Origin: Candidatus Latescibacterota bacterium
Lineage (GTDB): Bacteria > Latescibacterota > UBA2968 > UBA8231
Direction: 5' to 3'
Length of the DNA: 64,000 nt
Assembly: GCA_965217585.1 (NCBI GenBank)
Contig: OZ244561.1
Coordinates: 1,856,001-1,920,000, forward strand
Shown here in pieces: positions 1-62,941 of this stretch. A program made the translations under genes and the position numbers. The notes below the pieces were generated by a model. That model had not been told where the DNA came from and did no database searches. It was given only the letters and a program-made list of their open reading frames with translations. The stretch's first letter is position 1, and each line of letters begins with the position of its first letter.

Positions 1-1
1 T

Positions 2-358
2 ACCACGGTCCTGAGTCCGCAGATTCTGGGCGGCAGATTACTCGCCCAAGTTGCGCTAGTGCCCGACGTCTTCACCCCCAACGGAGACGACATCAACGAT
101 GAAGTCTCCGTGCGCTACAGCCTGCTGTCCGTGAGCGCACTCCGCCCCGTCAATATCTCGGTATACGATCTCAGCGGCCAGCTCGTACGAGTCCTGCACG
201 ATACCCCTGAAATTAACGGACGCTACGAAGACAAGTCGTGGGATGGCCGCGACGAGAACGACCAACTCGTCGCACCGGGCGTCTATCTTGTGCGGATCTC
301 TGTCGAGGGGGACGCCAAAGCCGACGAACTGTTGCGCCTAGTCGCCGTCGCCTATTGA
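2..358 (+). CDS. 3' end of secreted FlgD-Ig/T9SS-type-B-like tail protein (paralog 1, 5'-truncated by window)
   Basis: Frame open from base 2; FTPNGDDIND...VYDLSGQLVR...WDGRDENDQLVAPGVY...VAVAY*, same tail as five other paralogs in window. Confidence 0.85.
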   Translation, partial: TTVLSPQILGGRLLAQVALVPDVFTPNGDDINDEVSVRYSLLSVSALRPVNISVYDLSGQLVRVLHDTPEINGRYEDKSWDGRDENDQLVAPGVYLVRISVEGDAKADELLRLVAVAY

Positions 359-443
359 CCCCACCTCACACCATCCCAATGACAACTCCAGATTGGTACG
401 TTGTTCCAAATCGCGGGCCTGCGTACCTCGGAGTGATGGAAAT

Positions 444-2102
444 ATGAAGATCCCATCGGCAGTGAGACTGCTAATCGCCGTTATCCCGGCTGGGTGTGAG
501 CCGTCCGAGGATGAGTTAGTCGCCCGGGTTGGGACATATCCGATCACCTCCAACGCGCTGAGGACCTTTGTTGAAGGGCTTCCAGTAGACCTGCGCGTTC
601 AAGAGACAGGTGATGTCGCTCGCCGCCGTTACCTGCAGGATATGGTCGATCGCTACCTGATGCTCATCGAGGCTCGGGCCCGGGGGTTGGACACCACACA
701 GGTGATGCGCACGGCGGTCAGCGAAGCAGTCGACAGCCGGGCTCGGAGTCGCTATAGGGCCCGTAAGATGACTTCCACTAAAGAGATTACTCCGCAGGAG
801 GGGCGTCGGTACTTTGCCAGCGAGGGATATGACCAGGAGCGCAAACTGACCGCTATCCTGCTTAAAAATCGAGCCCAGATCGAAGCGGCATTGGTCGAGC
901 TGAAGGCGGGAAAAGCTTTCGAGGATATTGCCCAGGCGCAGTCTCTGGACAAGGCGGCGGCGGTAAAAGGTGGTGAATTGGGATGGGTAGACAGGGATAT
1001 GGCACTGCGGCTCTACATCCCGCAGGAAGTCTTCACCGACCTGCCAACCGGGCAGGTTTCAGAGCCTCTGCCGGCGGGCAAACACTGGCACCTAGTCCGC
1101 TTTATAGAGGAGCGACCGACGCAGTATGAGAAGAACCGGCTGGTGATTGCATCCCGCCTTCGCGCCGAGCGCACAAAGCAGCTCTCCGAAGAGCACTTCG
1201 AGCAACTCGAAGCAACCTTCGATATACAGTTGGGAATAGACGGCTTCAAGGAACTGGCAGCGGCCTATCGCCAGAGGACGCCGGAAGTCCTCGCCGACAG
1301 TCCGACTCCACTCTACATATACGACCAGGGCCAGATCAGTGTGGGCCAGGCACAGCAGACGCTGAAGCCCCTGAAAGAGGCCCGCGCCTTGGCTGACGGT
1401 GACCGGGCCAAGGCGATCACCGTTCTGCAAAAATACGTTTTGCGCCCGTTTCTGCTGGAAGAAGCCGCCCGACGCGCAGGTATTTATGACGAGCCCGATA
1501 TCAAGCGTTTTGCAGCTAATTACCGAGAAGATGTTGTCTTGGAAATCTTGAGAAAAGTCGCCATTTCCCAGAGAGTAAAACTGTCTGAGGAAGAGGTGCG
1601 CCAATACTACGACGAGCACCTCGAAATGTTCTTCCACGAAGGTGCGACCTGGGTCGAAGAATTGCTGCTACCCACCGAGGCAGCGGCTCAGGACGCGAGA
1701 AAACAGCTAGAGGCCGGAGCGCAGTTCGAGGCGTTGGCCAGCCTTAGTCTGCGCCCTGGAGCGGTCGGAGTCAAAGCGAAATTTCACTTCCATGCTCTGG
1801 AAAAGGTCCGCTATCCCCAACTGATACCGGCAATTTTAGAAGCGCAAAAAGGTCAGCTCGTCGGACCCCTTAAACTGGAGTCGGGCTTCTCTGTATTCAA
1901 AGTTTTTAAGAGGGAGGAGGGCGCTGTAGAACCCTTCGCCACTGCTAGGCGTAGAGCCCAAGGCCTGCTCCGCATGCAGCGGCAGAAAGGTATGTTTCAG
2001 AACCTGATGGACACCCTGAGAAAACGCCACGCCGACCAAGTCGATATTTTCGAGGATCGACTGCGGGCGGCTCTGCCCGACAGCCTTGTGGGAACTGATT
2101 GA
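444..2102 (+). CDS. SurA/PpiC-like peptidyl-prolyl isomerase/chaperone lipoprotein
   Basis: ATG 444, lipobox-like IPAGC; VARVG N-domain; parvulin motif FEDIAQAQSLD...KGGELGW plus second degenerate rotamase domain; paralog of 61166-62941. Confidence 0.8.
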   Translation: MKIPSAVRLLIAVIPAGCEPSEDELVARVGTYPITSNALRTFVEGLPVDLRVQETGDVARRRYLQDMVDRYLMLIEARARGLDTTQVMRTAVSEAVDSRARSRYRARKMTSTKEITPQEGRRYFASEGYDQERKLTAILLKNRAQIEAALVELKAGKAFEDIAQAQSLDKAAAVKGGELGWVDRDMALRLYIPQEVFTDLPTGQVSEPLPAGKHWHLVRFIEERPTQYEKNRLVIASRLRAERTKQLSEEHFEQLEATFDIQLGIDGFKELAAAYRQRTPEVLADSPTPLYIYDQGQISVGQAQQTLKPLKEARALADGDRAKAITVLQKYVLRPFLLEEAARRAGIYDEPDIKRFAANYREDVVLEILRKVAISQRVKLSEEEVRQYYDEHLEMFFHEGATWVEELLLPTEAAAQDARKQLEAGAQFEALASLSLRPGAVGVKAKFHFHALEKVRYPQLIPAILEAQKGQLVGPLKLESGFSVFKVFKREEGAVEPFATARRRAQGLLRMQRQKGMFQNLMDTLRKRHADQVDIFEDRLRAALPDSLVGTD

Positions 2103-3635
2103 GTGCGCCAGATCTTCGCCTGTAGCCTCTGTGGCGCAGCGATCCTTTCCCTGAGTGTGGGATGCGGTCTTGGGCAGGAGCCCGACGGCAGTTCCCCAGA
2201 GCAGGACGCCAGGCGACAGAAAGGCCTCTTGTTGACGGGCAGAGGGCTTCTCTTGCTGCAGCAGGGGCGACCAACCCGGGCGCTGGCCGTTTCCAAGGAA
2301 GCCCAGCAGTTCATTCCAGAGGCACCGGAACCCTACTTCAATATGGGGCTCGCCTACTCTCGTCTCGGTCGCCATGCAGAAGCCATAAAAGCCTTCGAGC
2401 TAGCCCAAGCTCGGGGATCTCCAAATGCCGCCCAGTTTTTCGCTCTAGGCTTGTCGCTGCGCGCCCAGAACCACGATCTGGAGGCAGCTAGCGAGTTTCG
2501 CAAAGCCATAGATTTAGCCCCCGACCGAGCCGACTACCACTATGCTCTGGGTGAAGTGCTCAGGTCCATGAGCGATTTCCCCGGCGCAGTCGCGGCCTTC
2601 GAAACGGCTATCCGGCTCGATTCCACCCACATCGAAGCCCACTTTTACCGCAGTGATCTTCTTGCCCGAGGCCAGCGGCTGGACGAAGCCGAAGCCGGAT
2701 ACAGGCGCACCCTGGCGCTGGATCCGGAGCGGACGGCCACTTATCTGGGCCTGGGCCGACTACTCTCCAAACAGAGGCGTTTTGCCGAGGCCATCGACAT
2801 GCTGCAACGAGCCATCGCGATCAACCCGAAGGGCTCCAATGTCTATTATTTTTTGAGTCAGGTTCAGCGCCAAGCCGGAAATGAACAGGGGGCAGAATCA
2901 GCGCTCGCCACGTTTCAACACTTGTACGCAGTTGAACAGCATCTGGACCAGGGGGACCTATATGCGGTGCGCGGTAAGTGGGAACTGGCCATCGCGGCCT
3001 GGTTGCAGGCTATCGCCGTCGACTCCGCCTCCGTCGATGCCTATATACGGGTGAGTGAGACGCACCTGCGACAGGAAGATTTGGAGGCAGCACTGCCCGT
3101 GTTAAAAAGGGGACTAGCCGTGAGGCCGCAGAATTTGGTCCTGCGCTGCCTGTTGGGCGAGGCCTATCTCGTCGCCGATAATCCGACGGCCGCGGCGCAG
3201 ACATTTGAGCAGGCCCTACGCCAGGATCCGACCTTACTGCGGGCGCTGTATGGGCTCGGACGCGCCGATCTGGCAGCCGGAAATCTCCAGAGCGCTGTTG
3301 CTTGGTTCCGACGAGGTCTGGACATTGATCCAGATGACGTGGAATCGCACTACCACCTCGGACTTGCCTACGTCAGACAAAGGCGCTATGTCGAGGCTCT
3401 GACCTGCTTTCAGCAGAGCGTGGCTATCGACCCGTCCCACGTGCGGGCCCATTACGCCCTAGGCCGATTGCATGTGGAGCAGGCAGCAGATGTCGAGGCC
3501 AGAGCCGCTTTTGCCACAGTCTTGGAACTGGACCCCGATCACTCCAGAGCCCGAGAGGGTCTGGCGCGCCTAGATGAGGGTGGTGATTTGATTGGCCAAG
3601 GTGCTGCGGGAATGCCCGGCGAGGGGAGAAAATAA
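2103..3635 (+). CDS. TPR-repeat (lipo)protein
   Basis: Many TPR repeats (YFNMGLAY, YHYALGEVL, SHYHLGLAY); N-terminal SVGC lipobox-like. Confidence 0.85.
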   Translation: MRQIFACSLCGAAILSLSVGCGLGQEPDGSSPEQDARRQKGLLLTGRGLLLLQQGRPTRALAVSKEAQQFIPEAPEPYFNMGLAYSRLGRHAEAIKAFELAQARGSPNAAQFFALGLSLRAQNHDLEAASEFRKAIDLAPDRADYHYALGEVLRSMSDFPGAVAAFETAIRLDSTHIEAHFYRSDLLARGQRLDEAEAGYRRTLALDPERTATYLGLGRLLSKQRRFAEAIDMLQRAIAINPKGSNVYYFLSQVQRQAGNEQGAESALATFQHLYAVEQHLDQGDLYAVRGKWELAIAAWLQAIAVDSASVDAYIRVSETHLRQEDLEAALPVLKRGLAVRPQNLVLRCLLGEAYLVADNPTAAAQTFEQALRQDPTLLRALYGLGRADLAAGNLQSAVAWFRRGLDIDPDDVESHYHLGLAYVRQRRYVEALTCFQQSVAIDPSHVRAHYALGRLHVEQAADVEARAAFATVLELDPDHSRAREGLARLDEGGDLIGQGAAGMPGEGRK

Positions 3636-3760: not shown

Positions 3761-6421
3761 GTGCGACAACGCGAGTACTCTGTAGCATCCATTCTGTTCT
3801 GTATGGCCCTTGGGGCCCTTCCGATCAGTGCACAGGACTACGGTGCCCGCTTAGGAACCGAAAGGGGTGGAGAAGTCACTTTCGAACCGCAGGGCCCTGG
3901 GGTTATGTTTGGTGCATTGGATCCGGCGGTGCGCCGGTGGTACGTCCCCCAGGAGCTCTATAGAGAATTCGGCTGGAAGCAGTGGGAATACTCAAACTAT
4001 GCCAGAGAACACTATCAGCGTTACGTCGACATCAGCCTAGAAGGCGACTATTTTTACGATCTATATGGTGATTTCGTCGGTCGCGGATGGCTCATTTTTA
4101 ACACCTCCCAGATCCAGCCCGAACAGTTTGGCAGCTCAATCTTCAAGTCCACGAGGTTTTCTGAGTGGTTCTCCGGGCTTCTCATCTCCGCCGACAGAAA
4201 AGGGCAGTACCAATATGCGGTGACGATCAGCAACGAGCTCCGCACCACGCTGACCCCCATGACCTTTTCCAAGCCTCGCTGGGACGGCATCCAGATCGAT
4301 TTCGCCTCGGATGCATACGAATCCACCCTAATCTTTTCGCGTTTGAGCACTCCAGGAGGCTCCAGTACGCGAGACCTCGAGAACCTCGTGACAAACCTCA
4401 CTACACTGCTCGGTGGCCGTTTTACCATCCAGGTGGGGGATTTTGCGACGGTAGGTTTAACCACCGTCAATACCCACCAGTCCAACACGTTGGTCGACGG
4501 CTTCAAGGGCAACCCCATCCACGGCGAGCTGACCATCGACCAGAGAGCGACGATTGGCGCCATCGAAATTGTTCTGCGCGACGATTCCCCTGAAGACGGG
4601 ATCGGGGGGGCGGCCTTTTTTTCTGCCGGCTCCGACATCATCATTACCTATGTAGACGGCAAGGTGGACAGGGGTAAGAATATCCGTTTCGAACCCGTTA
4701 TCCAGGGTGGTTTTATCCGTGAGGGCTTCATCGCCGCCGATGGCACCGAGCAGATAAGCCTGCGCTATGACTTCGACAGTGCAGCCTTTCTCAATCGGGC
4801 AAATGGCACCAAAGAGGAGATCAAAAAGGTCGAGTTTGAGCTCGTTCTGGGCAATGACTACCAGGTGTGGGTGACATCCGACCGACAGTTGAACAGCGCC
4901 TCTACCTCCGTCCTCCTCATGGTGACCCAAGCAGAGGGCAACGTACAGGACAATACCAACCTCAGAGTCGTCAGCTTTGAATACGGTCTGCCTACGGCTA
5001 CCCAGATCTGGGGCACCACCCTTGAACTTAAAGAGGTTTTCGGGTTTAAATTCTACGGCGAATACGACCTGAGCCACAGCTACACAAAATTTCCCAGTAT
5101 AACGCGCAATAGCCACTCTGTTTTCTCGGGCATCAAAGGCGAGCGATCTGCGCCGGCGTGGATGATGAATGTTTCGCGCGTTGATTTTCCCTGGTTCTTC
5201 TTCGGCGAGGCGTACAGCATGGACCCACGCTACAACACCAGTAGCTTCGCTGCTGAGGCCTCCGGGTTTATCGACTACGAGGATCCGCGCGTTTCCACTA
5301 TCGACTTGGTCACCGACAACGATGACCAGGATCGATTCGCCGACGCCATTCGCAGAGATACGCGGAGAGGAGACAATGCCGTTTTTCCCGGCTGGGACGA
5401 GAACAACGACTTTGTGTCCGACTTTAACCAGAACGACAATTCCGTACTGTCGAATTCGACACCGGATTACGAGGAGGCCTTTCTGCGCCATCACGTCGAC
5501 CGGCCGGAATTTCTCTTCGGTATCGATTTGAACAACAATCTTTGGATCGACCGATTTGAGAATGATGATCAGCCGGACTATCCATACAAAAAAGATCGCC
5601 GTGGCTTCAATGTGTATGGAGGCTTGAACTTGCTTGCCGATGTTCAGCTCACGGTCGGGCTGCTGCGGGAAGAGCTGATCTCATCTGATAAGAAGAATCA
5701 TACCAACTACCTGCTGCTCACCATGGATCGCGATATGGCCGAATGGGGACGTCTGCGCTTCTTCGAGTCGCTGAAGTCCGTAAAAGACAATATTGAAGAC
5801 GAACTTCTCCAGTGGCTGCCAAATACGATATTGCGCACCGGAGAGCCGACGCGCTTGCAGGACCCGATTATAGCGCCCGATACCTGGATCAACACGCTGT
5901 GGACAGGACACGACTACTCCAGGGGAGCCCTGCAAGCAAAAAATCTGGTAAAATACAAAATCTATCACCAACGTCTCAACAAAGAAGAGAGAACGCTGCT
6001 CAGTAGGCGTAAACGGGACTACTTCTTCGGCCTTATCAACAAGGCTAGCTACCGCATCGATTGGGGCCGACTGCGAATCGAGCCGCGCTGGAAAAGCGAG
6101 TTCCGCAAGCAGACGCTGGACCTGCTTTCTACCGACAATCGGGAGGAATTGACCGAGATTGGTGGTGTTCTTGTATCCGTACCGTTCCTCCTGCACACTA
6201 CTTTAATGACGGGCATAGAGTACACGTCCTTCAATGATTTCAAGCGCGATTCCAACGATTTCAACGGTATCGCCACGGCGTTTCAGGTCACCAATGAATC
6301 CTCCTATCTGGGGTACAACCTGATTATGCAGGGTGGTGTGAAAATCAACCGCCGAGATTTTAAGGGTCAGGATTCAGACACTTTGACGCAGGGCTTTCTC
6401 ACAATGTACGCCGGGTTATAA
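3761..6421 (+). CDS. Large secreted, putative outer-membrane beta-barrel protein with Asp-rich Ca-binding repeats (paralog A)
   Basis: GTG start after GGAGG; signal peptide ALPISA-Q; DNDDQDR, DENNDFVSD, DLNNNLWIDRFENDD repeats; alternating amphipathic strands; ends FLTMYAGL; collinear homolog of 56687-59302. Barrel fold is inference. Confidence 0.7.
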   Translation: MRQREYSVASILFCMALGALPISAQDYGARLGTERGGEVTFEPQGPGVMFGALDPAVRRWYVPQELYREFGWKQWEYSNYAREHYQRYVDISLEGDYFYDLYGDFVGRGWLIFNTSQIQPEQFGSSIFKSTRFSEWFSGLLISADRKGQYQYAVTISNELRTTLTPMTFSKPRWDGIQIDFASDAYESTLIFSRLSTPGGSSTRDLENLVTNLTTLLGGRFTIQVGDFATVGLTTVNTHQSNTLVDGFKGNPIHGELTIDQRATIGAIEIVLRDDSPEDGIGGAAFFSAGSDIIITYVDGKVDRGKNIRFEPVIQGGFIREGFIAADGTEQISLRYDFDSAAFLNRANGTKEEIKKVEFELVLGNDYQVWVTSDRQLNSASTSVLLMVTQAEGNVQDNTNLRVVSFEYGLPTATQIWGTTLELKEVFGFKFYGEYDLSHSYTKFPSITRNSHSVFSGIKGERSAPAWMMNVSRVDFPWFFFGEAYSMDPRYNTSSFAAEASGFIDYEDPRVSTIDLVTDNDDQDRFADAIRRDTRRGDNAVFPGWDENNDFVSDFNQNDNSVLSNSTPDYEEAFLRHHVDRPEFLFGIDLNNNLWIDRFENDDQPDYPYKKDRRGFNVYGGLNLLADVQLTVGLLREELISSDKKNHTNYLLLTMDRDMAEWGRLRFFESLKSVKDNIEDELLQWLPNTILRTGEPTRLQDPIIAPDTWINTLWTGHDYSRGALQAKNLVKYKIYHQRLNKEERTLLSRRKRDYFFGLINKASYRIDWGRLRIEPRWKSEFRKQTLDLLSTDNREELTEIGGVLVSVPFLLHTTLMTGIEYTSFNDFKRDSNDFNGIATAFQVTNESSYLGYNLIMQGGVKINRRDFKGQDSDTLTQGFLTMYAGL

Positions 6422-6434: not shown

Positions 6435-8765
6435 TTGGGAAAATCCATTGGCTGGATCGCCTCTGCCAGAAGGCTCCTATCAGGTCGCTGTTTCTGGGCA
6501 GCACTGATTGCCCTGACTGCGCTCGCCCTGCGGATTGCCCACGTTCAAGACAGCACTTCCAGCCCGCTCTTCGATGCCCCTGTGGGCAACGCGCGGATGT
6601 ACGCGGAGGTGGCGACAGACCTAGTTGCAGGCAACTGGGCAGGTAAGCCCGAACCGTACTGGCAGCCTCCTCTGTACTCGTACTATCTGGCCATGATTTT
6701 CTGGATGACTGAACAGAGCTATTTTCTGCCGCGGCTTATTCAGGCGATCCTGGGCGCGGCCATCTGCGTGTTAATCTACTTCCTGGGGCTTATTGCCTTT
6801 CCAGATTCGGTGGCGCGGGGCGCAGGGGTCGGTGCCGCACTGTATGGCCCGCTCATCTACTTTGGCGGCGAGCTGCTGCCGACCATTGTGGCGATTTTTC
6901 TGTTCCTGCTCTTTCTGCTCTTTCTGCTCAGAAGCTGTCTGAAAACCCCCGGCGGCCGTCGCTCAGCTATCAAGGCTGCGGGGCTGCGTTGGCTGATTGC
7001 CGGATTCCTGTTGGGACTTTCAGCGCTGGCCGCAGTAAATATGCTTGTCTTCCTGCCGTTGCTCCTCCTGTGGCTCTACGCCTGCGCTGATCTGCCCAGA
7101 GGGCACACTAGGGCAGGACGCGCCCTCTTTGTGCTGCTCGGCTGCAGCCTGACCATTGCCCCGGTGACAGTGCGCAACTACATCGTCGGCCACGACCGAG
7201 TGCTCATCTCTGCCAATGCCGGCTTCGACTTTTATCTGGGCAACAACGCCAATTACGCCCGCACCGTTCAGATGCAACCCGGATTCGAGTGGCAGGAACA
7301 GGTGGAGAGCCCCGCAACATCCGAAAAGTCGCGTTATTTTCTGGCTAAACCCTGGCACTTTATCCGCCATGAACCCTTGCGGTATCTAACCCTGTCGCTG
7401 CACAAGCTTTACTTATTCTGGCACGGCGACGAGTTGCGCCGGAATCTCGATCCGTACTACGCCCGCAACGACTCGACGATTCTGCGCTTGCTAATGTGGA
7501 AATATGGACTTGCGTTCCCCTTTGGCCTTGTCGCTCCCTTGGCGCTGGTGGGTATGGTCTGCTACTGGAGAAGTGCACCCAGCTCATCCTCCGGTCGACT
7601 CCTCCTGCTGTTCTTGCTGGTTTACATGTTATCAGTAGTGGTGTTTTCCGCGACGGCCCAACATCGCCTTCCGGCGGTGCCTCTGGCCCTGCTCTTTGCC
7701 TGTTCTGGTCTGCGGGAGATCCTCGTGCGGCGGGGAAGCAACAGGCTCAGATTGCTCGTTGCAGTGGTGGTCCTGCTGGTAGCAACCAATGTGGGGGCGG
7801 GCACAATGAACATGGAAGGAAGCGGTTCCCAGCACTTTGTGTTGGGAACCGCCTATGAGACACTGGGGATGGAGGCCAACGCCATGCGGGAATATAGGGC
7901 CGCCCTGGAGTGCCTGCCCGATTACCGCGAGTCCGTGGTACGCCTAGGCCACCTCCACACCTCTCGCCAGGAACATGACCGCGCCATTCGGGTTTACGAG
8001 GCTTTCCTCCGGCGTTATCCAGAGACCGAATCCATCCGCTTCCTGTTGGCCAACGCCCATCTGGCGGCAGGACATCTCAAGAGGGCGATAGCTGGTTACG
8101 AAAGCCTGATCCCGCAGCGCCCGCAGTGGGCAGCTCTGCACGGCACCCTCGGCTATGCCTACCTGCGGGATGGGCGGCCCTCAATGGCGATCTCGGCCTA
8201 CCGACGAACGCTTGAACTGCAGCCAGATTCGAGCCTGGTACGCTACCAGCTAGCGCGGCTCTACGCGGTCCAGGACAGCTTGCGAGCTGCCACTGAACAA
8301 TTTAGCACGCTCCTGGAGAAAGACCCCGACAATGCAGAATTCCACACCCGCATTGCAGATCTTCTTATCCAGCGGGAAAGTGCGGGGGAAAACACCTTCG
8401 CCCTGCCGCAGAACGCGGCAACAGAGGCGGCCGAGATTCATCTACAGGAGGCGATTCGGCTAGCGCCGAATCGCCCTGAATCGCACTGGAGTCTGGGCAC
8501 GATGTTGGCCCGGCAAGCACGCTACGACGAAGCCACGAAGCACTTCGAACGGCTTTCTCAGCTCGAGTCCGACAATAACGAATTGTTTGTCTGGTTGGCC
8601 AACCTCAGCCAGCGAACCGGACACAACGACAGAGCGCAGGAGTACATGGCCCGTTATGCTAGGGCCGAACGCGAACGGCGACGCCAGCATCAGGTCCAGC
8701 GGGAAATGGACGATATGTTAAAAAAAACGTTCGGGAGGAAGACGACGCCAAAGAAAGATTTCTGA
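6435..8765 (+). CDS. GT-C (PMT/ArnT-like, GT39/GT83) membrane glycosyltransferase fused to TPR repeats
   Basis: Multi-TM N-half with YWQPPLYSYYLA, RNY...ISANAGFDFYLGNN, HRLP motifs; C-terminal TPRs. Confidence 0.75.
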   Translation: MGKSIGWIASARRLLSGRCFWAALIALTALALRIAHVQDSTSSPLFDAPVGNARMYAEVATDLVAGNWAGKPEPYWQPPLYSYYLAMIFWMTEQSYFLPRLIQAILGAAICVLIYFLGLIAFPDSVARGAGVGAALYGPLIYFGGELLPTIVAIFLFLLFLLFLLRSCLKTPGGRRSAIKAAGLRWLIAGFLLGLSALAAVNMLVFLPLLLLWLYACADLPRGHTRAGRALFVLLGCSLTIAPVTVRNYIVGHDRVLISANAGFDFYLGNNANYARTVQMQPGFEWQEQVESPATSEKSRYFLAKPWHFIRHEPLRYLTLSLHKLYLFWHGDELRRNLDPYYARNDSTILRLLMWKYGLAFPFGLVAPLALVGMVCYWRSAPSSSSGRLLLLFLLVYMLSVVVFSATAQHRLPAVPLALLFACSGLREILVRRGSNRLRLLVAVVVLLVATNVGAGTMNMEGSGSQHFVLGTAYETLGMEANAMREYRAALECLPDYRESVVRLGHLHTSRQEHDRAIRVYEAFLRRYPETESIRFLLANAHLAAGHLKRAIAGYESLIPQRPQWAALHGTLGYAYLRDGRPSMAISAYRRTLELQPDSSLVRYQLARLYAVQDSLRAATEQFSTLLEKDPDNAEFHTRIADLLIQRESAGENTFALPQNAATEAAEIHLQEAIRLAPNRPESHWSLGTMLARQARYDEATKHFERLSQLESDNNELFVWLANLSQRTGHNDRAQEYMARYARAERERRRQHQVQREMDDMLKKTFGRKTTPKKDF

Positions 8766-8784: not shown

Positions 8785-10707
8785 TCACGGCTCCCACACT
8801 TCGACGAGCACATTGGCCGCTAGGGGGCCGGGCAGTGTCTGTACCTGCCCCGATGGCCAGCGGACCTCGATCTGTTCGATGGTCGCCGCATTGTCGAGAC
8901 CAAAGTAAAGGGGATAGAGACTTTGGGTAAGATAGCCCGATTTGCCGTCGTGGACTTTGGTGTAGGTCTGTGCACCTGCTTTGACGATGACCACCGCACC
9001 CAGCCCGCCGCGGTTTGATTGGGTGCCGATCAAGCGCACTTTGAGAAAGTGAATGTCTTTTCTGGTGGACAGGTCGCTGATCAGCACCATCGGCTCCGAG
9101 TTGAAGTCGTTGGTGACTATGTCCAGGTCGCCGTCGTTGTCCAGATCGAAGATAGCCGACGAGCGCGAACCCAGCGCTCCCCAGACGACAAAGCACCCTT
9201 TGCGGTTCTTGCAGAGACTGTGATGCTGGTCGTCGTTGGAGCAATCGAGTTCGAACCAGGGTTGGGCAGTGCGCCCATCCCGGCGCGGTTCAACGCCCAG
9301 GATGAATTCGCTGTCCAAGAACCCAACTCCTTTATTGTTCAACAGGAGGGAGTTGATTCCGTAGCGCCAGGGAGAATTCATGCTCGCAGTGATAAAGACA
9401 TCCTCGTAGCCATCGGCGTTGAAGTCTCCCACGCTCAACCCCCAAGGCCAGTAGTTCTCGGCACCGATCTGGTCCGAAATTTCCTCGAAGCGCCCGTTGC
9501 CGGCATTGCGATAGAACGCATTGCCGAAGATACTGTTGCCTCCACTGAGAAGGAACTCTTCTTCCTGTTTGACATCGGCCTTTAGCTTTTCTCGTTCCGG
9601 GCCGATATTCTCGGTCATATCCGAGTGCATGTCGGTTACATAAAGATCCATGTGACCGTCGTTGTTGTAATCGAATACCTTGACCCCCATGGATCCCCAG
9701 GGCGTTTTGGGAAAGACCTGGCGACTCTTCTTGATGAAGTATTGTCCCCGAACATTTTCGTAGTATTGGTCGTTCCCCTGCATATTCAATACATACAGAT
9801 CGGTCCAACCGTCCTCGTTCGCATCAATCGGGGTAGCATCCCCCGTCCAACTGGTATCCTCCAGTTTTACCTCAGTGGTCATGTCGCCAAAGCGCTTGTC
9901 GCCCAGATTCCTGAATAGCAGACTGCGCTCAAAGCGCTCGGGAAAAAGGTGTCCAGAGAAGGCGTCGCTCAAGCCGACGTAATAATTGTATTCCTCTCGA
10001 TCCTGACCGGCAGCATAGTGGGAAGAGGGTATCAGTACATCGCTGGTATAGGTGCCGACGTTGGTCAGGAACAGGTCCAGCAACCCGTCTCGGTCGTAGT
10101 CGAAGAAAATGGCCCCGGAGGAATAGCCTTTATAGTCGAGCCCGGACGACTCGGAGATGTCCTTGAAGCGCTCCTCGCCGTGGTTCTCGAACAGATGATT
10201 GCCTTCCCTGATAGTGGTCACATACAGGTCTGGATCGCCATCGTTGTCGATATCCGCGAACGAAGCGGTTACGCCAATAGGTTCGGCAAGACCCACGCCC
10301 GCAGTCGCAGTCACGTCTTCAAAGGTGCCATCGCCCTTGTTTTTCCACAGTTGATTGCTGCCCACTTGGTTGACAAAGTAAATGTCGTACAGGCCGTCCC
10401 CGTTCACATCGGCGATTGCGAGCCCGTTGCCGTGATCGTAGTGAACCGGTTGCCAGTATTTCCCCGAGTCGTCTACGACCTTGTTGCGAAAGTGGATACC
10501 GCTCCGGGCAATTTGATCGGAGAAATTGAAATGGCAGAAAACCTCGAACTGGTCAATGGTTGCCAGTTGAGCCTGTCTGCGACTTTCGAGCCATGGAGGA
10601 TCGATAATCTCCGGTGGTTCAGCAAGCATCTGTGGCTCTTGCGAGGAAGCTACTTCTAAGGTGGTTGCGAAAAAGGGTATTGCCATCCATATCGGGAGGT
10701 ATTTCAC
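8785..10707 (-). CDS. CRTAC1-family protein (FG-GAP/VCBS repeats + ASPIC/UnbV)
   Basis: DVNGDGLYD, DIDNDGDPDLY, DYDRDGLLD repeats; SNRGGLGA...GYLTQS...FGL...VRWPSG C-domain; start uncertain (GTG 10707). Confidence 0.85.
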   Translation of the reverse strand: MKYLPIWMAIPFFATTLEVASSQEPQMLAEPPEIIDPPWLESRRQAQLATIDQFEVFCHFNFSDQIARSGIHFRNKVVDDSGKYWQPVHYDHGNGLAIADVNGDGLYDIYFVNQVGSNQLWKNKGDGTFEDVTATAGVGLAEPIGVTASFADIDNDGDPDLYVTTIREGNHLFENHGEERFKDISESSGLDYKGYSSGAIFFDYDRDGLLDLFLTNVGTYTSDVLIPSSHYAAGQDREEYNYYVGLSDAFSGHLFPERFERSLLFRNLGDKRFGDMTTEVKLEDTSWTGDATPIDANEDGWTDLYVLNMQGNDQYYENVRGQYFIKKSRQVFPKTPWGSMGVKVFDYNNDGHMDLYVTDMHSDMTENIGPEREKLKADVKQEEEFLLSGGNSIFGNAFYRNAGNGRFEEISDQIGAENYWPWGLSVGDFNADGYEDVFITASMNSPWRYGINSLLLNNKGVGFLDSEFILGVEPRRDGRTAQPWFELDCSNDDQHHSLCKNRKGCFVVWGALGSRSSAIFDLDNDGDLDIVTNDFNSEPMVLISDLSTRKDIHFLKVRLIGTQSNRGGLGAVVIVKAGAQTYTKVHDGKSGYLTQSLYPLYFGLDNAATIEQIEVRWPSGQVQTLPGPLAANVLVEVWEP

Positions 10708-49842: not shown

Positions 49843-50043
49843 ACGAAGTCGCGGATGAAGCCATAAGCGTCGACACCAGAAGCGGACAGAAAAACTTGAC
49901 ATCTCTGATCTTATTTATTAATAGGTATCCAACTTGCGGGAGTTACAAAATCAAAAGAAGACATAACTTATTGATCCTCAGTAATTTAGAAAATGGCGGT
50001 TCGCGAAAGGCCAAAATTGCAAAAAGTGTCTGAACTATTGACT

Positions 50044-52440: not shown

Positions 52441-52480
52441 GCTAAGCGGGCGGATTCTCCGCACCGCGGGAATGCAAAGC

Positions 52481-54277
52481 ATGGAGCCGATTGGGCGAAA
52501 AGTTCTGCTGGTATCCACTTGGGTTTTGCTGGCACTGATCTCTGCCAAAAGCACCTGGGGCGTGGAAGTCTTGGGCATCGGCAACGAGCAGAACCCTTGG
52601 GAAGCTATGGGTACCATGGAGAACATTGATACCACCACGGATCCAGGGTGGATTCAGCCCCGACGCACCGAAGCCACGGAAAATTTGAGCCTCGGTGCCC
52701 AAGGAAGAGGGGGAGGTATGTCCACGCCCCAGCCATCTGTGCGCCAGGCCGGCAACCTGAACAATATGATAGATGGGGATGTAAACACGGTTTTCGACGG
52801 GAGCAGGGCCCGGCAAGTGGGGGGCAGAATGGATCTGGACCTGGGCTCGATTTTCGGTGGGGTCGAGAGAATTCGCTTCTACCCCAGCCCGACCTTCAGC
52901 GACAAGTTTCTGAAGGGGTACGAAGTGTACATCAACGACGGTAGCGCGGAAATGCAGGTTGGCGGGGTGCTGCAGTGGACGCTGGTGGAAAAGGCCGAGA
53001 AAAACACCGACAGTACCGTACAGATGCGAATTCCGTCCCAGTACGTGCGCCATGTCAGGATTGTGTTCACCACGCCGCTGCCTTGGGAAATTGCCGAGTT
53101 GGAGGTGTACAGCCGCGGCTTTGTACCCCGAGCAAACTATACTTCAGAGGTGATAGACCTAGGTGGGCTGGCTAATTTTGGCCAGTTGAAGTGGGCTGCA
53201 GAAGAGCAACCTCGAGCCTCGGTGCATATCTTTACCCGAACCGGAGCCACGCCCGATCCCCTTAAATATTACCAACTAAAAGAAAAAGGACTCAAGACCG
53301 AACAGACCGAGGTGTCCGCAGATGATTACAACAGCCTGAAAGAGGCCGAGCGGGAAAAGGGTTTGGATGCGGAGAACTGGAGTCCTTGGTCTCCGGTGTA
53401 TACCCGTGCATCTGGAGAACAGGTGGCCTTCGTCGAACCTCGGCGCTACTTCCAGTTCAAGTGTGAGTTTGCCAGTGATTTTTTTACCCAGGGAGCGCGG
53501 CTCGACTCGCTGGCGTTCGAATTTTCCACCCCTCCGGTAGCGCGTTTTGTCTGGGGTGAGGTCGGGCCGCTGGAGGTCAACGCCGGAGAACCCACTCTGT
53601 TTACCTATGTGGTGCGAGCCAAAATCGAGGAAAGCGATACGGGATTCGATGCCTTGGAGATCGCTACTCCTTCTCGGGCCACAATTGAGGAACTGAAAAT
53701 CGGTGGCACAGCGGTGGCGGATTTCGTCCAGGAAATCGAAGACGACCGCATGGTAATCCGCTTCCCCAATCATAGGGTCGTGGATACCACTCCGGTGGAG
53801 TTGAGTTTTGAGGGGGCGGTTCTGGTGTACGGGACGCGTTTTACCGGCAAAGTCTTCGATACCCAGACCGCGGAGTTACCGCAGCCCATTACCGCAGGGG
53901 ATACATCCCCGGATTTGCCCAACGACGACCTGGCGGTGGCCGTGTCGCTCGGAGAGACCATTGTCGCAGGTGGTCGCATGGTCCCCAATCCTTTCACCCC
54001 CAACGGCGACGGCGTGAACGATCTGGCCTCCATACACTACCAGATTCTCAAGTTGACCAAGGAGGTTCCGATCACCGTGGCGATCTACGACCTTTCGGGC
54101 AGACTGGTCCGCGATTTGTACTCGGGCACGGACGTGAGCGGGATTTATGCCTTGGATTGGGATGGTCTGGATAACAGTGGGCGTTTGGTAGTTCCGGGAC
54201 TCTACCTCAGTCGTATATCAGTTGACGCCGATAGGGGCGCAGGGGACAAGGTTGCACTCATAGCGGTGGTCTACTGA
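52481..54277 (+). CDS. Secreted discoidin/FlgD-Ig tail protein (paralog 4)
   Basis: IDGD, DLG..IRFYP, WEIAELEVY, TRTGATPDP, NWSPWS, FTPNGDGVND, ends IAVVY*; start 52472 or 52481. Confidence 0.85.
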   Translation: MEPIGRKVLLVSTWVLLALISAKSTWGVEVLGIGNEQNPWEAMGTMENIDTTTDPGWIQPRRTEATENLSLGAQGRGGGMSTPQPSVRQAGNLNNMIDGDVNTVFDGSRARQVGGRMDLDLGSIFGGVERIRFYPSPTFSDKFLKGYEVYINDGSAEMQVGGVLQWTLVEKAEKNTDSTVQMRIPSQYVRHVRIVFTTPLPWEIAELEVYSRGFVPRANYTSEVIDLGGLANFGQLKWAAEEQPRASVHIFTRTGATPDPLKYYQLKEKGLKTEQTEVSADDYNSLKEAEREKGLDAENWSPWSPVYTRASGEQVAFVEPRRYFQFKCEFASDFFTQGARLDSLAFEFSTPPVARFVWGEVGPLEVNAGEPTLFTYVVRAKIEESDTGFDALEIATPSRATIEELKIGGTAVADFVQEIEDDRMVIRFPNHRVVDTTPVELSFEGAVLVYGTRFTGKVFDTQTAELPQPITAGDTSPDLPNDDLAVAVSLGETIVAGGRMVPNPFTPNGDGVNDLASIHYQILKLTKEVPITVAIYDLSGRLVRDLYSGTDVSGIYALDWDGLDNSGRLVVPGLYLSRISVDADRGAGDKVALIAVVY

Positions 54278-59311: not shown

Positions 59312-61162
59312 ATGAACGTGAGCAGGCGAAAATATAGCCTGTTGCTGCCGATGGGCTGTGCCTTATTGCTCTTTGCAGAATCAGCTCTCGGAGCGGCTAG
59401 ATGGACGGTTGGAACCGCGGACCGTCCATGGAGCGCTGCAGGTAGTTTTGCGGGGCTGGACGACACCGCGGAGGAGGGCTGGCTGCAACCCATCTTCGTG
59501 TCGAACCAGAATTTGTCCCTCAGTTCCATGGACAGAGGTGGGTGGGTAAATTCGGATTTCCGCATAGGGGTAGAACTGTTGCCCAAGATCATCAATGGAG
59601 ATCGCACTGCGGCTTTCCCGGACCTGTCCGACAGGAGCGTGGAACGCAGAGTAAACAAAGCAGATCTCCCCGTAACCCTGATCCTAGACTTGGGTGGGCC
59701 TTTCGGCGTGGACAGTCTTAGCTTCTATCCCCGGGAAGGGTTAGAACAAGCCTTTATGAGAGGATACCAAGTCTGGGTCCACGATGGGGTCGGGCTCGAT
59801 GAACTCAAACTCCCCCTCGGAGGACACTGGTTTAATGTCGTAAAAGACTGGAAGCTGGTAGCGGAAAAGGCCCAGACGGATAACCCTTTCGCCCATATAA
59901 AACTCCCCTTGCAGGTGGTGCGCTACGTGGCCATCTCAGACACCATCAGTTTGCCCGATCCCACCTTGTGGGAGATTGACGAACTCGAGGTCTGGGGCAA
60001 TGGATACGCCCTCGTGGGCCACTACGAGTCAGACGTGATCGATCTGGGCGACCGGGCCAGTCTCGGGAATCTGACGTGGTCGGCTCTGAGCGATTCGGGC
60101 AGTGCTCTGCTGATCCGCACGCGCACCGGGCAGACGGAAGACCCCTTTGTGTACCATCGTCTGACTGGTCTGGGGCTGGCAGGGGAAGAACGGGTAACGC
60201 GAGCTCAGTACAAAAAACTCAGACCGACAGAAAAAGGATCCATCCAGCCCGATACCGAGAATTGGAGCGGCTGGTCGGCTCCTTATCCTTCAACTGGGGA
60301 GGAACCCCTCATCGCTTTAGCTCCGGCACAATACGTTCAGTTCAGAATCGATTTTCAATCCTTCTCTCCGCTGTCCAGGAGCCGGATTGATTCTCTAGCA
60401 GTGGAATTTTCCACGCCTCTATTCGGCAGGGAATTCATAGCCGAGTTGACTCCCCAACAAGTCATTCCCGGCAAAAAGACGGCCTTCACCTATGCGGTGC
60501 GCGCTATCTTGGAGTCCGAGGACGGCGGCATTGACGGTCTGCAAGTAGCCACGCCTTTGCCGGCGGCAATCAAGGAAGTCAGGATCAATGGCAATCCGGT
60601 CGAATACTCCGAGGACGTGGGGGCAGACGGTTTCGCGGTCTCGTTTCCAGAGAACCGGATAACTGAACACGCAACCTTGCTCGAAGTGGACTTTGACGCC
60701 GAAGTACTGGTGTACGGCACGCGCTTCACCGGCCGGGTATTCGATACCAAGAGGGAGGGAGATATACCGCAGATCATCGTGCCGGGAGATGCCACGCCGG
60801 ACATTGATACGGATGACCTGCTGGTGAAATGGGACCTGGATAGATCTCTACTTGCATCCGTAGAGATTTCGCAGCGCCATCTGACACCCAATGGCGATGG
60901 GGTGAATGATGCAGTAGAAATATCTTACAGCCTGCTACAGGTCATCCAGTCCATTCAGGTATCTGTTGAGATCTTTGATCTTTCTGGCCAGCGGATTTGG
61001 CACCGCTCCGCAGAGCAGGCCAACGGGCAATACGCTATATCTTGGAGGGGCTTTGACGATGCCGGGCAGGTGGTGCCGCCGGGCCTGTACGTTTACCAAC
61101 TAGTTGCCGATGCCGACCAAGGAAACAATGTGTACATGGGAACCCTAGCGGTTGTGTATTAA
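59312..61162 (+). CDS. Secreted discoidin/FlgD-Ig tail protein (paralog 6)
   Basis: DLGG..SFYP, WEIDELEVWG, TRTGQTEDP, NWSGWS, LTPNGDGVND, ends LAVVY*. Confidence 0.85.
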   Translation: MNVSRRKYSLLLPMGCALLLFAESALGAARWTVGTADRPWSAAGSFAGLDDTAEEGWLQPIFVSNQNLSLSSMDRGGWVNSDFRIGVELLPKIINGDRTAAFPDLSDRSVERRVNKADLPVTLILDLGGPFGVDSLSFYPREGLEQAFMRGYQVWVHDGVGLDELKLPLGGHWFNVVKDWKLVAEKAQTDNPFAHIKLPLQVVRYVAISDTISLPDPTLWEIDELEVWGNGYALVGHYESDVIDLGDRASLGNLTWSALSDSGSALLIRTRTGQTEDPFVYHRLTGLGLAGEERVTRAQYKKLRPTEKGSIQPDTENWSGWSAPYPSTGEEPLIALAPAQYVQFRIDFQSFSPLSRSRIDSLAVEFSTPLFGREFIAELTPQQVIPGKKTAFTYAVRAILESEDGGIDGLQVATPLPAAIKEVRINGNPVEYSEDVGADGFAVSFPENRITEHATLLEVDFDAEVLVYGTRFTGRVFDTKREGDIPQIIVPGDATPDIDTDDLLVKWDLDRSLLASVEISQRHLTPNGDGVNDAVEISYSLLQVIQSIQVSVEIFDLSGQRIWHRSAEQANGQYAISWRGFDDAGQVVPPGLYVYQLVADADQGNNVYMGTLAVVY

Positions 61163-61165
61163 TTA

Positions 61166-62941
61166 ATGTCTCAAAGGAACATGAGAAGACGCAGGACGGG
61201 AAGTGGGTGGGGTCAGCTCTCTCGCCTTTTTCTACTTGGTCTATTCACCGCGTGTACTACAACATCCGAGGACCCTCCCCAAGCCGCGCCCGGCGTGGTG
61301 GCGCGGATTGGAGATACGGTCCTCCAAGCCGGCGAGTTGCGCGACTTCGCCATTTCCACCCCTCGGAGTCTGCGTTCCAAGCAGGAGGGAGCGGCAGCGC
61401 GGGAGGACTATCTGCGCAGTTTGCTGGTCAAGCACCTGCTCTACCTAGAGGCCCAAGTTTGGGAATTGCAGGAGTCGATGGAGGTCCAAAAGCGGCTTAC
61501 AGCGAGCTGGCACCAACACCTCATCGAAGTTTATCGCAACGAGCAGCCACCCATCCAGGTAGAAGTTGACGAGGCGGATATCCGCAGGCATTTCGAGGAA
61601 AAGGACCTAGGGCGTCAGCGCCAACTAGCCGGTATTCTAGTCGAGGAAGAATCCCAGGCCCAAGAGGTGCTCGCAAAGCTCGCCGCTGGCGAAATTTTCG
61701 CGGATTTGGCCGGACAATACTCCGTCCACAAGGGGTCGGCCACCCAAGGTGGCGTATGGGGGTATATTTCGCGGCAGCAAGCCCGCCGATTAAAAATTCC
61801 AGATGAGGTATTCCGCGAACTGCCGGTGGGCGTCGTGTCCGACATCCTGCCCATCAATAAACGCTACTTGGTCATGCGCTTTCTCCAGGACCGGCCCGGG
61901 AGCCTAAATGAACACCGGTCCCGCATTCGCTCCGTGCTCCATGCAGGAAAGCTCAAAGAGGCCAAAAGAGAAAAGGGCCGGTCTCTAGCCCGGGAGTTTG
62001 GCTGGAAAATCGAATCCGCAGGGTTAGAACTTCTCCTGAAAAAAGCGGCCGCGTACTCCCCGGTGCATCGCCGGCATTTTTCAGCTAGAGAAGCGTTCCA
62101 GCCCCTCTTCACCTATCAGGGCGGGCAGGTGACTGTGGGAGAATGCGTGGATGCGCTGTGGGAAGATGCCGGGCGGGCGCTCTCTGGCTCGGGGATGAAG
62201 GACAGCGCTGAGGTAGTTGCAGCCGCTGAGTCCACCGTCATGGAGTCAGCCATTTTGCTGGAGGCGGCAAAGAGAGCGGGCATCCCCGAACGACCAGAAG
62301 AACAAAATTGGCTGGAGCAGACGCGCTGGGAGTTCATGGTTCGGCAAGCCCGCAGGGAAGAAGTGGAAGACAAGGCCGTAGTCAGCGAGGAAGAGGCGCA
62401 GGAGTTCTATCAGTCGCACGAGGATTTGTTTCGCAAATCCGACCAGTTTGATCTGATCGAATTACTGGTCGAAACCCAAGAAAAAGCGCGGGATCTGCTC
62501 ACAACATTGGAGCGCGGGGACGCAACCCTTATCGACCTAGCCCGGAAACACACCATCCGCACCGAGTCGCAGGAAGAGCCGGGACAGGTACACCTGCACG
62601 GCCGCGATCGCTATGTCAACCCGCAGCTCTACGAGGCCGTACAGGAGGCCGAACTAGGGGAAATCGTTGGACCTGTCCAGGTCAAGGGTGGGTACAGCCT
62701 GTTCAAAGTACTCCGCCGCGTAGAAGGAGAACTCCCTCCGTTTTCCAAAGTGGCACGACGGGCGCACTCACTGCTGCGTCGGCAGAAAGAAGACCGTCTC
62801 TTCGAGGAACTAGTCGACGATTTGCTGGAGAAGTACCAAGATCGCATCACAGTGTACCAAGACGAGTTGGAAGCGGCTTTGCCCGATACCTTGATACAGC
62901 GACTGGCGGCTACTGAGGGAGCTTGGAGAGATGGAGAATAG
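61166..62941 (+). CDS. SurA/PpiC-like peptidyl-prolyl isomerase lipoprotein
   Basis: FTAC lipobox; FADLAGQYS...QGGVWGY; second rotamase domain; collinear with 444-2102. Confidence 0.8.
   Translation: MSQRNMRRRRTGSGWGQLSRLFLLGLFTACTTTSEDPPQAAPGVVARIGDTVLQAGELRDFAISTPRSLRSKQEGAAAREDYLRSLLVKHLLYLEAQVWELQESMEVQKRLTASWHQHLIEVYRNEQPPIQVEVDEADIRRHFEEKDLGRQRQLAGILVEEESQAQEVLAKLAAGEIFADLAGQYSVHKGSATQGGVWGYISRQQARRLKIPDEVFRELPVGVVSDILPINKRYLVMRFLQDRPGSLNEHRSRIRSVLHAGKLKEAKREKGRSLAREFGWKIESAGLELLLKKAAAYSPVHRRHFSAREAFQPLFTYQGGQVTVGECVDALWEDAGRALSGSGMKDSAEVVAAAESTVMESAILLEAAKRAGIPERPEEQNWLEQTRWEFMVRQARREEVEDKAVVSEEEAQEFYQSHEDLFRKSDQFDLIELLVETQEKARDLLTTLERGDATLIDLARKHTIRTESQEEPGQVHLHGRDRYVNPQLYEAVQEAELGEIVGPVQVKGGYSLFKVLRRVEGELPPFSKVARRAHSLLRRQKEDRLFEELVDDLLEKYQDRITVYQDELEAALPDTLIQRLAATEGAWRDGE

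Follow-up and report, generated by a model that had tools for sequence, protein, structure and literature searches.

Two gene clusters of a Latescibacterota genome are copies of an undescribed cell-envelope cassette, built around a large predicted outer-membrane barrel and tentatively read as a surface capture-and-import unit

A stretch of 64,000 nucleotides from Candidatus Latescibacterota bacterium (assembly GCA_965217585.1, contig OZ244561.1, positions 1,856,001 to 1,920,000; this whole stretch is called the window below) holds two gene clusters made of the same parts: exported proteins with a conserved C-terminal tail, here called cargo, a protein of about 880 amino acids (aa) modelled as an outer-membrane barrel, a lipoprotein with two parvulin domains of the peptidyl-prolyl isomerase (PPIase) type, and a protein family that we call W. 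The two clusters are copies of a cell-envelope cassette that is repeated about forty times in the genome and has not been described, and we tentatively read it as a capture-and-import unit similar to the polysaccharide utilization loci (PULs) built on SusC/SusD. The proteins of the window were taken from a list of its open reading frames (ORFs) and scanned with Pfam and NCBIfam, 34 ORFs being included in the Pfam scan. The features of the two clusters are the following.

2..358, + strand: cargo tail of a gene whose 5' end is cut by the window start (open-ended ORF), with a complete C-terminal domain (CTD) tail, PNGDDIND ... VAVAY
444..2102, + strand: P1, PPIase, double-parvulin lipoprotein; Pfam Rotamase_2 85.8 bits, Rotamase 51.5 bits
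2103..3635, + strand: tetratricopeptide repeat (TPR) protein with a signal peptide/lipobox-like N-terminus; Pfam TPR families
3761..6421, + strand: barrel B1, 886 aa, from its AlphaFold2 model; no Pfam or NCBIfam match
6435..8765, + strand: membrane and TPR protein of 776 aa, from hydropathy; Pfam TPR only
8785..11019, - strand: FG-GAP/UnbV_ASPIC (CRTAC1-like) protein; Pfam FG-GAP_3 157 bits, UnbV_ASPIC 54 bits
11059..13179, + strand: cargo C1 with CHU_C-type tail; Pfam CHU_C 39.0 bits (cut-off 27)
13473..14375, + strand: W1, ~300 aa, exported protein with a predicted fold of carbohydrate-binding module family 9 (CBM9) and a C-terminal TAVEEASWGRIKAAHH helix tag; from model, fold match and profile
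14520..17609, + strand: cargo C2, 1029 aa, discoidin and CHU_C-type tail; Pfam F5_F8_type_C 40.3 bits, CHU_C 38.1 bits
17653..20640, - strand: FG-GAP/UnbV_ASPIC fused to TPR repeats (Pfam)
45883..47751, + strand: FG-GAP/UnbV_ASPIC (CRTAC1-like) protein; Pfam FG-GAP_3 171.6 bits, UnbV_ASPIC 78.2 bits
47857..49842, + strand: DUF6785/DUF6784 membrane protein; Pfam 456.8 and 107.3 bits, ~12 hydrophobic segments
49993..50820, + strand: U275, small exported protein of 275 aa and probable lipoprotein, from a family linked to the barrel; without match in Pfam or NCBIfam
51044..51979, + strand: W2, CBM9-like protein with His as predicted first residue and the C-terminal tag; from alignment, 28% identity to W1
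52430..54277, + strand: cargo C3 with CHU_C-type tail; Pfam CHU_C 30.6 bits, FlgD_ig 30.0 bits
54297..56648, + strand: cargo C4, discoidin and CHU_C-type tail, directly upstream of the barrel; Pfam F5_F8_type_C 30.6 bits, CHU_C 29.4 bits
56687..59302, + strand: barrel B2, 871 aa, 41% identity to B1; no Pfam or NCBIfam match
59312..61162, + strand: cargo C5 with CHU_C-type tail; Pfam CHU_C 39.6 bits
61166..62941, + strand: P2, PPIase, double-parvulin lipoprotein (lipobox LFTAC); Pfam Rotamase_2 74.8 bits, Rotamase 59.5 bits

The original prediction, made from the letters of the window, had described the same set of parts in both clusters, and all of them are found where it had placed them: three CTD-tailed cargo paralogs, the protein of ~880 aa, the double-parvulin lipoprotein, W and FG-GAP/ASPIC proteins, with the PPIase gene directly after a cargo gene in both clusters (358 to 393/444, and 61162 to 61166). 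The P1 frame opens at 393, its likely start being MKIPS at 444, followed by a lipobox, IPAGC; that of C1 opens at 10822, overlapping its neighbour, with a likely start (MSTRLLL) at 11059, and C1 has full-length paralogs in the genome. The genome map beyond the window edge contains a full cargo gene at the position of 2..358. The barrels are 41% identical over 876 columns, the PPIases 31% over 557 columns and the W proteins 28% (E 3e-27); judged by these alignments, the three pairs are true paralogs. In the second cluster the five genes from C3 to P2 (cargo-cargo-B2-cargo-P2) are tightly packed on a single strand. A third complete module, with PPIase, W, U275, three cargo genes, barrel, TPR and DUF6785, lies ~1.2 kb past the window end (genome positions 1921194-1939399), and a DUF6785 gene lies just before the window start (1850155-1852272).

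The genome (7.32 Mb, one contig) was searched as six-frame ORFs by BLAST and with hidden Markov models built from the paralogs. It encodes 80 barrels, which fall into 41 regions, together with 168 cargo genes (263 ORFs bear the tail), 78 DUF6785, 49 W, 42 PPIase and 24 U275 genes, and these six families occupy 12.2% of the genome DNA. Cargo is present in 39 of the barrel regions, W in 31 and PPIase in 28, all four families being found together in 26; in some regions two or three barrels follow one another with just one cargo gene. The term "duplicated module", used originally, was right in that the two clusters are real copies, but it falls short of a genome-wide arrangement of 41 barrel regions.

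The linkage was compared with 1000 random placements of the genes. Cargo lies within 10 kb of 71 of the 80 barrels, against a mean of 29.5 and a maximum of 49 at random; the corresponding figures are 38 for PPIase (mean 8.7, maximum 20), 41 for W (10.1, 23), 26 for U275 (4.9, 14) and 32 for DUF6785 (15.4, 30). The linkage of the parts to the barrel is far beyond random placement. We further compared the distance matrices of mutually nearest partners with the barrel matrix by Mantel tests (2000 permutations), and obtained r values of 0.87 for U275, 0.70 for W, 0.53 for cargo and 0.40 for PPIase, none of them reached by any permutation; for DUF6785, r was 0.40 and was reached by 14 permutations. 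Since the partner matrices track that of the barrels, the modules duplicate and diverge as units, although co-diversification alone does not imply physical binding.

Several other families recur within 12 kb on either side of the barrels. In terms of the 41 regions these are TPR proteins of the family of 2103..3635 (22), FG-GAP/UnbV_ASPIC proteins (14), PhyH dioxygenases (9), sulfatases (8), DUF4159 (8), a TPR protein of 1088 aa (8), GFO/IDH/MocA oxidoreductases (6), enolase-superfamily proteins (5), ExbD (4) and amidohydrolase_2 (4). The sulfatases and sugar-acid-type enzymes of these sister modules suggest glycan catabolism.

The association of the parts extends to other genomes. When one genome per species was searched with the barrel (16-row alignment), 635 relatives were found, and the best 74 loci, which come from Latescibacterota (58), Gemmatimonadetes/-ota (13) and one member of the Bryobacterales among others, contain cargo in 69 cases, W in 55, PPIase in 53 and DUF6785 in 21, typically in the order D-P-c-B-c-c-B-W (DUF6785, PPIase, cargo, barrel and W). 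These loci are not independent, because they are mostly orthologs of the first cluster; in the loci of other genomes, the orthologs of C2-type cargo end just before the barrel. In three distant families of the phylum (10 loci, 5 genomes), W adjoins the barrel in 4 loci, 3 of these W proteins keeping the His and the tag described below, and a cargo or other tail-bearing protein lies near the barrel in 6; one locus enters both counts and one barrel stands alone. The linkage proposed for these families thus holds outside this genome, in the 74 loci and, as barrel-W or barrel-tail-protein adjacency, in 9 of the 10 distant ones.

Among 168 Latescibacterota genomes, the barrel was detected in 106, W in 109 and C2-type cargo in 87. 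In the family to which the window belongs (75 genomes) the barrel and W are present in all 75 and cargo in 71. In three families of the same class, barrel and cargo are absent from all 56 genomes, with weak W matches only in 5 of them, and most families further away have all three again, so that the cassette has either been lost from the three families or is unevenly spread. Many of the 56 genomes are more than 95% complete. Over the 168 genomes, barrel, W and cargo follow the same phyletic pattern, a comparison given without a statistic, as kin are not independent.

Contigs assembled from RNA libraries (four runs from two studies, 95-99% identical to the window) cover 50123-60549; one of 8190 nt and one of 7691 nt each run from U275 over W and a pair of cargo genes to the barrel. 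Over the FG-GAP/ASPIC and DUF6785 genes further upstream, the contigs from the same two runs are several-fold lower in depth, and 62002-63785 has no cover. This is consistent with expression of the block from U275 to the barrel in a close relative; as RNA libraries may contain DNA, the contigs are no proof of it.

The barrel protein is the least familiar of the parts. Neither B1 nor B2 matches any Pfam or NCBIfam family. A word-indexed search returned 1138 relatives, the best 120 of which carry no Pfam domain, the few named ones being hypothetical proteins from Latescibacteria, and an exhaustive search of 1.84 billion cluster representatives gave 719 relatives at E<=0.001. The AlphaFold2 model of B1 (60-row alignment) has a pLDDT of 81.3 and a pTM of 0.77. 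Between residue 138 and the C-terminus it contains some 26 long antiparallel strands, as counted approximately from the DSSP string. Residues 488-612 form a loop of ~125 residues, rich in Asp and Asn and poorly structured in the model. The N-terminal 95 residues are modelled with low confidence yet are conserved and aromatic-rich, and might serve to dock a partner in the periplasm, for example the parvulin lipoprotein; residues 25-95 (window 3761-4045) are conserved and very rich in W, Y and F.

Both fold searches with this model led to OM barrels. The best Foldseek matches were MtrB (6r2q_B, E 2e-7), SlpA, LptD, FimD/PapC and TonB-dependent barrels, none with a TM-score above 0.32, and ranks 1-50 of the VIA fold search were beta-barrels of bacterial or organellar outer membranes with Z up to 12.7 and no family prominent. 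Because model and fold searches agree on OM barrels and the family databases are blank, the protein of ~880 aa is best described as a predicted OM barrel that belongs to the largest size class and represents a new family; "barrel-like", as it was first called, proved apt, the confident model being that of an OM barrel and not of a soluble protein. MtrB (6r2q), SlpA (8ae1, 7zgx), LptD (5iv9) and FimD share with it the fold and the size class of two dozen or more strands, but not a Pfam family, the identity being 6-10%, and the genes of their usual partners (MtrA/C, LptE, an SLH domain, pilus subunits) are absent.

The presence of SlpA among the best matches (8ae1_A, E 7.9e-7; 7zgx_A, Z 9.8 with 394 aligned residues) brings up another function, an S-layer-type anchor barrel like SlpA of Deinococcus with the cargo as lectin-like subunits of a coat, in which the paralogous modules would provide surface diversity, for example against phages or grazers or for different particles. 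The massive paralogy of surface-directed proteins would fit such a coat, as would discoidin and FG-GAP/ASPIC, which are typical adhesion-type domains. The SlpA TM-scores are, however, low (0.21-0.25; TMq 0.25 and TMt 0.24 for the structural match) and other large barrels score alike, Pfam gives no SLH or SlpA family for the barrel, the modules are kept as orthologous loci across genomes instead of varying between strains, and a coat would not be expected to be linked with an inner-membrane protein or with catabolic enzymes. We consider this explanation improbable.

The cargo proteins bear Sec signal peptides and end in tails resembling those of type IX secretion system (T9SS) substrates. The motif PNGD[GD]xN[DE] is present in 6 of 6 window tails, and the five full-length proteins all match CHU_C (PF13585), the Pfam family of type B CTDs, with 29.4-39.6 bits against a cut-off of 27; in the NCBIfam type B model TIGR04131 the tails score 16.7-23.8 bits, below the cut-off of 35. 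FlgD_ig, Por_Secre_tail and the CTD of PorU are matched as well. A discoidin (galactose-binding-like) domain was found by Pfam as a single stretch and only in C2 and C4 (14520-17609 and 54297-56648), so the double-discoidin subtype that had been proposed was not recovered. For the body of the cargo, a profile search against the Protein Data Bank (PDB) returned only FlgD Ig-like tails and a weak discoidin stretch of a fucosidase, Pfam at E<=1 added nothing and the Atlas gave only the cargo's own family.

The genome encodes SprA (483.5+116.5 bits in one frame of 2153 aa), PorU (627.5 bits) and, adjacent to PorU, a PorV-like protein (153.8 bits, below the cut-off of 250). Given these genes and the match of the tails to the CTD of PorU, export of the cargo by the T9SS is the simplest reading, and the comparison with type B substrates made originally was well chosen, as the tails pass the CHU_C threshold. 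The suggested check for sprA and porKLMN was answered in part: SprA was found, and GldM/PorM (TIGR03517) gave no match in the genome. PorP/SprF (TIGR03519, PF11751) gave none either, genome-wide or among the window ORFs. As control genomes were equally silent for both, the absence of PorP/SprF and GldM is not established. A heparinase II/III-like protein at 23409-25988 (- strand), outside both modules, has a type A T9SS tail (Por_Secre_tail), so that both tail types are in use in this genome.

A different role for the barrel has to be weighed here, in which it would functionally replace PorP/SprF, take the proteins with type-B-like CTDs from SprA and anchor them at the surface, for display or adhesion without import. 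In Bacteroidota, type B substrates are linked to and bind cognate PorP/SprF-like barrels, or shuttles, that are encoded alongside (SprB-SprF, PG1035-PorP), according to the available text of PMC9143113 and PMC12618676, and these pairs are the closest described arrangement to ours. The CHU_C scores of 5 of 5 full-length tails speak for this role, together with the adjacency of cargo to 71 of 80 barrels here and to barrels in other genomes, the co-diversification of both families (r 0.53) and the failure of two models to detect any PorP/SprF in a genome where 263 ORFs bear the tail. That failure has no positive control behind it, the tails stay below the NCBIfam type B cut-off, and the barrel is about three times as long as the PorP/SprF models (273-292 positions) and has no sequence match to them, as the original prediction had noted in calling it much larger than and unlike PorP/SprF. 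Anchoring would also leave W with its CBM9 fold, DUF6785 and the catabolic neighbours unexplained, and would not account for the runs of two or three barrels with one cargo gene. Of the rival explanations we give it the most weight, though it is still less likely than not and somewhat less probable than import; the two are not mutually exclusive. A complex prediction of B1 (25-886) with the CTD of C2 (920-1029) gave an ipSAE of 0.00 in both runs, without controls, and is neither for nor against binding.

The differences from type B pairs go beyond the barrel, which belongs to a different family with ~26 strands. Both have CHU_C-type cargo beside a dedicated OM barrel, many cognate pairs and T9SS core genes, but there are 80 barrels and 168 cargo genes here, compared with the 12 type B substrates given for F. 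johnsoniae in the available text, and a CBM9 protein, a double-parvulin lipoprotein, a protein with 12 transmembrane segments (12-TM) and TPR proteins are added to the pair.

It is also conceivable that the barrel is itself the exporter, a translocon for its neighbours in the manner of two-partner or usher systems or for a polymer, with the PPIase as chaperone and the tails addressed to the barrel and not to the T9SS. FhaC (Z 12.7) and CdiB (Z 12.1) are among the best VIA rows, ushers appear in both fold searches, each cluster has the gene of a dedicated periplasmic chaperone immediately after a cargo gene, and GldM/PorM was not detected, with the control silent. These are generic barrel matches, with rmsd values of 10-13 Å for FhaC and CdiB, and no POTRA, usher or PapD family was matched among the window proteins in Pfam; moreover, the genome has SprA, PorU and a PorV-like gene, and the tails share homology with PorU's own CTD. 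We regard an exporting barrel as improbable. The parallel to chaperone-usher systems drawn originally found no support, no usher (PF00577-type) or PapD-like family being matched and the ushers appearing only as generic barrel matches (TMq 0.16-0.21).

An alignment of 30 W sequences from this and other genomes shows a signal peptide followed by a nearly invariant His (H24 in W1; window 13542-13544), an IDGxxxDW motif, a second His in DxDHSGG (H136), several acidic positions and a C-terminal TAVExxSWGRIKA. The conserved residues of W1 are H24, H136, W292 and K296, and H24 and H136 each occur in at least 90% of the sequences. The W1 model (pLDDT 86.2) ends in a helix formed by the last 13 residues, and its best fold match is the cellobiose-bound CBM9 of T. 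maritima Xyn10A (1i82_A; Z 20.2, rmsd 2.3 Å over 185 of 189 residues), followed by a putative carbohydrate-binding protein from Bacteroides (Z 16.3) and by haem-binding DOMON-type subunits, of ethylbenzene dehydrogenase (Z 12.2) and nitrite oxidoreductase (Z 11.6). The profile of the 30 sequences also finds 1i82 in the PDB (E 6e-5), and Pfam CBM9_1 (PF06452) reaches 19.4 bits (E 0.0011), below its cut-off of 23.4. W is accordingly modelled as a CBM9-type carbohydrate-binding fold. By its model it has the same fold as Xyn10A CBM9-2 (1i82) with remote sequence similarity, but is a stand-alone exported protein and not an enzyme module, with His as predicted first mature residue, H136 and the C-terminal helix tag. 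Compared with the histidine braces of the lytic polysaccharide monooxygenase (LPMO) and CopC type, W has two conserved His, but its fold is CBM9/DOMON-like and not LPMO-like.

The tail of W is not private to it. In the window the tag, [ST]AVExxSWGxIK, is encoded at 14316-14375 and 51920-51979, its K standing 3-9 residues from the protein end. Among 18,574 ORFs of at least 100 aa, the pattern [ST][AEGSV][VTIA]x2-5W[GA]x[IVL]K in the last 30 residues was found in 70, 42 of them W and 28 others, and in two control windows it was found in none. The carriers other than W are small proteins that have signal peptides and unrelated domains (PD40 propellers, sCache_2, FGE-sulfatase, Temptin_C). Because 28 exported proteins with unrelated domains share the tail, it is a positional C-terminal tag of general use. 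NCBIfam at E<=10 gave no model for the tag with six C-terminal pieces of 49 residues, and no paper on it was found in the open-access literature. Some periplasmic penicillin-binding proteins have C-terminal amphipathic anchors, and by analogy with them we read the tag as a putative membrane tether. In W the N-terminal His accompanies the tag: AxA followed directly by His is seen in 33 of the 42 tagged W proteins, the His occurs in 2 of the 28 other tagged proteins, and the untagged W-like proteins examined are without it. A distant family of the phylum likewise has W proteins that combine the two. A tandem run of tag-bearing PD40 genes is present at ~6.837-6.853 Mb.

The label "SurA-like" for the PPIase was correct only as far as its two parvulin domains go; the SurA model NF008038 gives 42.1 bits for P1 and 16.2 for P2, against a cut-off of 394, and the other NCBIfam matches of P1 are partial and below their cut-offs. 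U275 has no Pfam or NCBIfam match, 21 of its 24 paralogs lie within 10 kb of a barrel and 16 of the 24 have a lipobox. DUF6785 as a transporter of the OPT type found no Pfam OPT match and no PDB relative. The protein at 6435..8765 has 8-9 hydrophobic segments in residues 1-460, a C-terminal TPR region and 17 paralogs. The look of its N-terminal half had suggested a GT-C-type glycosyltransferase; neither Pfam (E<=1) nor NCBIfam (E<=10) returned a helpful match for it, and it is described here as a multi-pass membrane region only.

Bacteroidota amplify SusC/SusD loci, and the cassette appears, by analogy, to be amplified in Latescibacterota in much the same way. SusC/SusD PULs occur as dozens of paralogous loci per genome, each with a large OM barrel and surface carbohydrate-binding proteins and near catabolic enzymes and inner-membrane transporters, and FG-GAP/ASPIC proteins also neighbour SusC/SusD pairs. 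The Latescibacterota cassette resembles them in the dozens of loci, in the big barrel with putative surface binders and in the catabolic and inner-membrane neighbours. It differs in having no Plug or TonB-dependent-receptor domain and no SusD-like lipoprotein (Pfam finds no SusD/RagB in the 34 ORFs scanned in the window); its putative surface proteins end in T9SS tails where PULs use lipid anchors, its modules contain few carbohydrate-active enzymes, and ExbBD showed no enrichment.

With this in mind, we favour the reading of the cassette as a PUL-like surface capture-and-import unit, with a probability of roughly 40%. It draws on the amplification, the co-diversification, the OM-barrel model, CBM9 and discoidin, the catabolic context, the DUF6785 linkage, the conservation, the T9SS genes and the RNA contigs. 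Nutrient capture and uptake is at least as good a fit as export to a genome with 80 barrels, to W with its CBM9 fold, to a linked 12-TM protein and to catabolic enzymes in sister modules. The original proposal, that each cluster encodes its own barrel/chaperone/subunit set for export or assembly, therefore stands as one of two live readings, nutrient uptake fitting the data at least as well. Location, contact and direction of transport are at every step inferred, from homologies, folds, linkage and distribution that the analyses show.

The unit might work as follows. The cargo would be exported by the T9SS and kept on the cell surface as substrate-binding proteins, and the barrel beside it would be both a platform and a channel for captured material, probably glycan or glycoconjugate fragments, into the periplasm. 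There W, held by its amphipathic C-terminal tag at the periplasmic face of a membrane, would take over the imported oligomers, and the DUF6785/6784 12-TM protein, where present, would move the product across the inner membrane. The module-specific double-parvulin lipoprotein may fold or hold its own barrel or cargo, the small U275 lipoprotein and the TPR proteins may be structural accessories, and different modules would serve different substrates.

Several results weigh against capture and import. Passage through the barrel, in either direction, is itself something that we infer. The barrel has no Plug or TonB-dependent-receptor match in Pfam, the 25 ordinary Plug-domain receptors of the genome are all outside the window, and no energy source for import was identified among the data. 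ExbD (17 matches at 9 loci, in neither window module) is not enriched near barrels, 2 of the 9 loci lying within 10 kb compared with 17% expected (binomial P 0.47), and we do not count it as a core part. The cargo is one family and not a varied set of enzymes, most of its length having no recognised domain; Pfam finds no glycoside hydrolase, lyase or sulfatase in either window module, and catabolic neighbours occur only in a minority of regions. Sugar binding by W is predicted from fold and profile. As for DUF6785, 49 of its 78 paralogs are more than 10 kb from any barrel, in such a way that it is only moderately linked, and its transporter nature comes from hydropathy and a weak Atlas lead (score 0.78) to "peptide transporter"/OPT clusters.

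A more specific version of the capture-and-import reading would make the cassette a new OM nutrient importer unrelated to TonB-dependent transporters, the Latescibacterota counterpart of the PUL paradigm. In it, a plug-less barrel of ~26 strands would be gated by its own acidic loop of a calcium-binding type, lectins delivered by the T9SS would feed it from outside, a tag-held CBM9 protein would serve inside, and the two His of W would bind a metal needed to capture the ligand or to cleave it oxidatively. That all of these hold together we think doubtful.

No described system was found to which the set maps, and the barrel is blank in Pfam and NCBIfam, so the description of the system as undescribed stands; no paper on the cassette, on a T9SS of Latescibacterota or on DUF6785 was found in the open-access literature. 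Earlier genome work on the phylum took its substrates to come in by way of non-specific porins (PMC4454575). A cassette that fills an eighth of a genome and has been retained throughout most of the phylum must play a central part in feeding or attachment, and its core barrel protein has no family, name or studied relative. Latescibacterota are widespread, uncultured degraders of organic matter. Work on the cassette would add a new family to the known repertoire of OM barrels, test for a second origin of PUL-like modular nutrient capture on a different transporter scaffold, widen the biology of type-B-like T9SS cargo and cognate barrels to a phylum other than Bacteroidota, characterise a new C-terminal tag for sorting or anchoring and give substrate-specific marker loci for the ecology of the phylum from metagenomes.

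The 25 kb between the two clusters hold unrelated genes, among them an S15 peptidase, the heparinase-like protein, restriction-modification or defence-type genes and a UvrA paralog. The defence/repair-type genes lie at 26896-45841 and comprise a HATPase_c_4 protein, HsdM, an Mrr-like nuclease and two AAA-ATPase_like/PDDEXK_9 paralogs; in the same stretch the UvrA paralog adjoins a nucleotidyltransferase. The G+C content falls to 0.455 at 38-40 kb, compared with ~0.57 elsewhere. Directly past the second cluster, on the opposite strand, a MORN-repeat protein is encoded at 62970-63785 (- strand).

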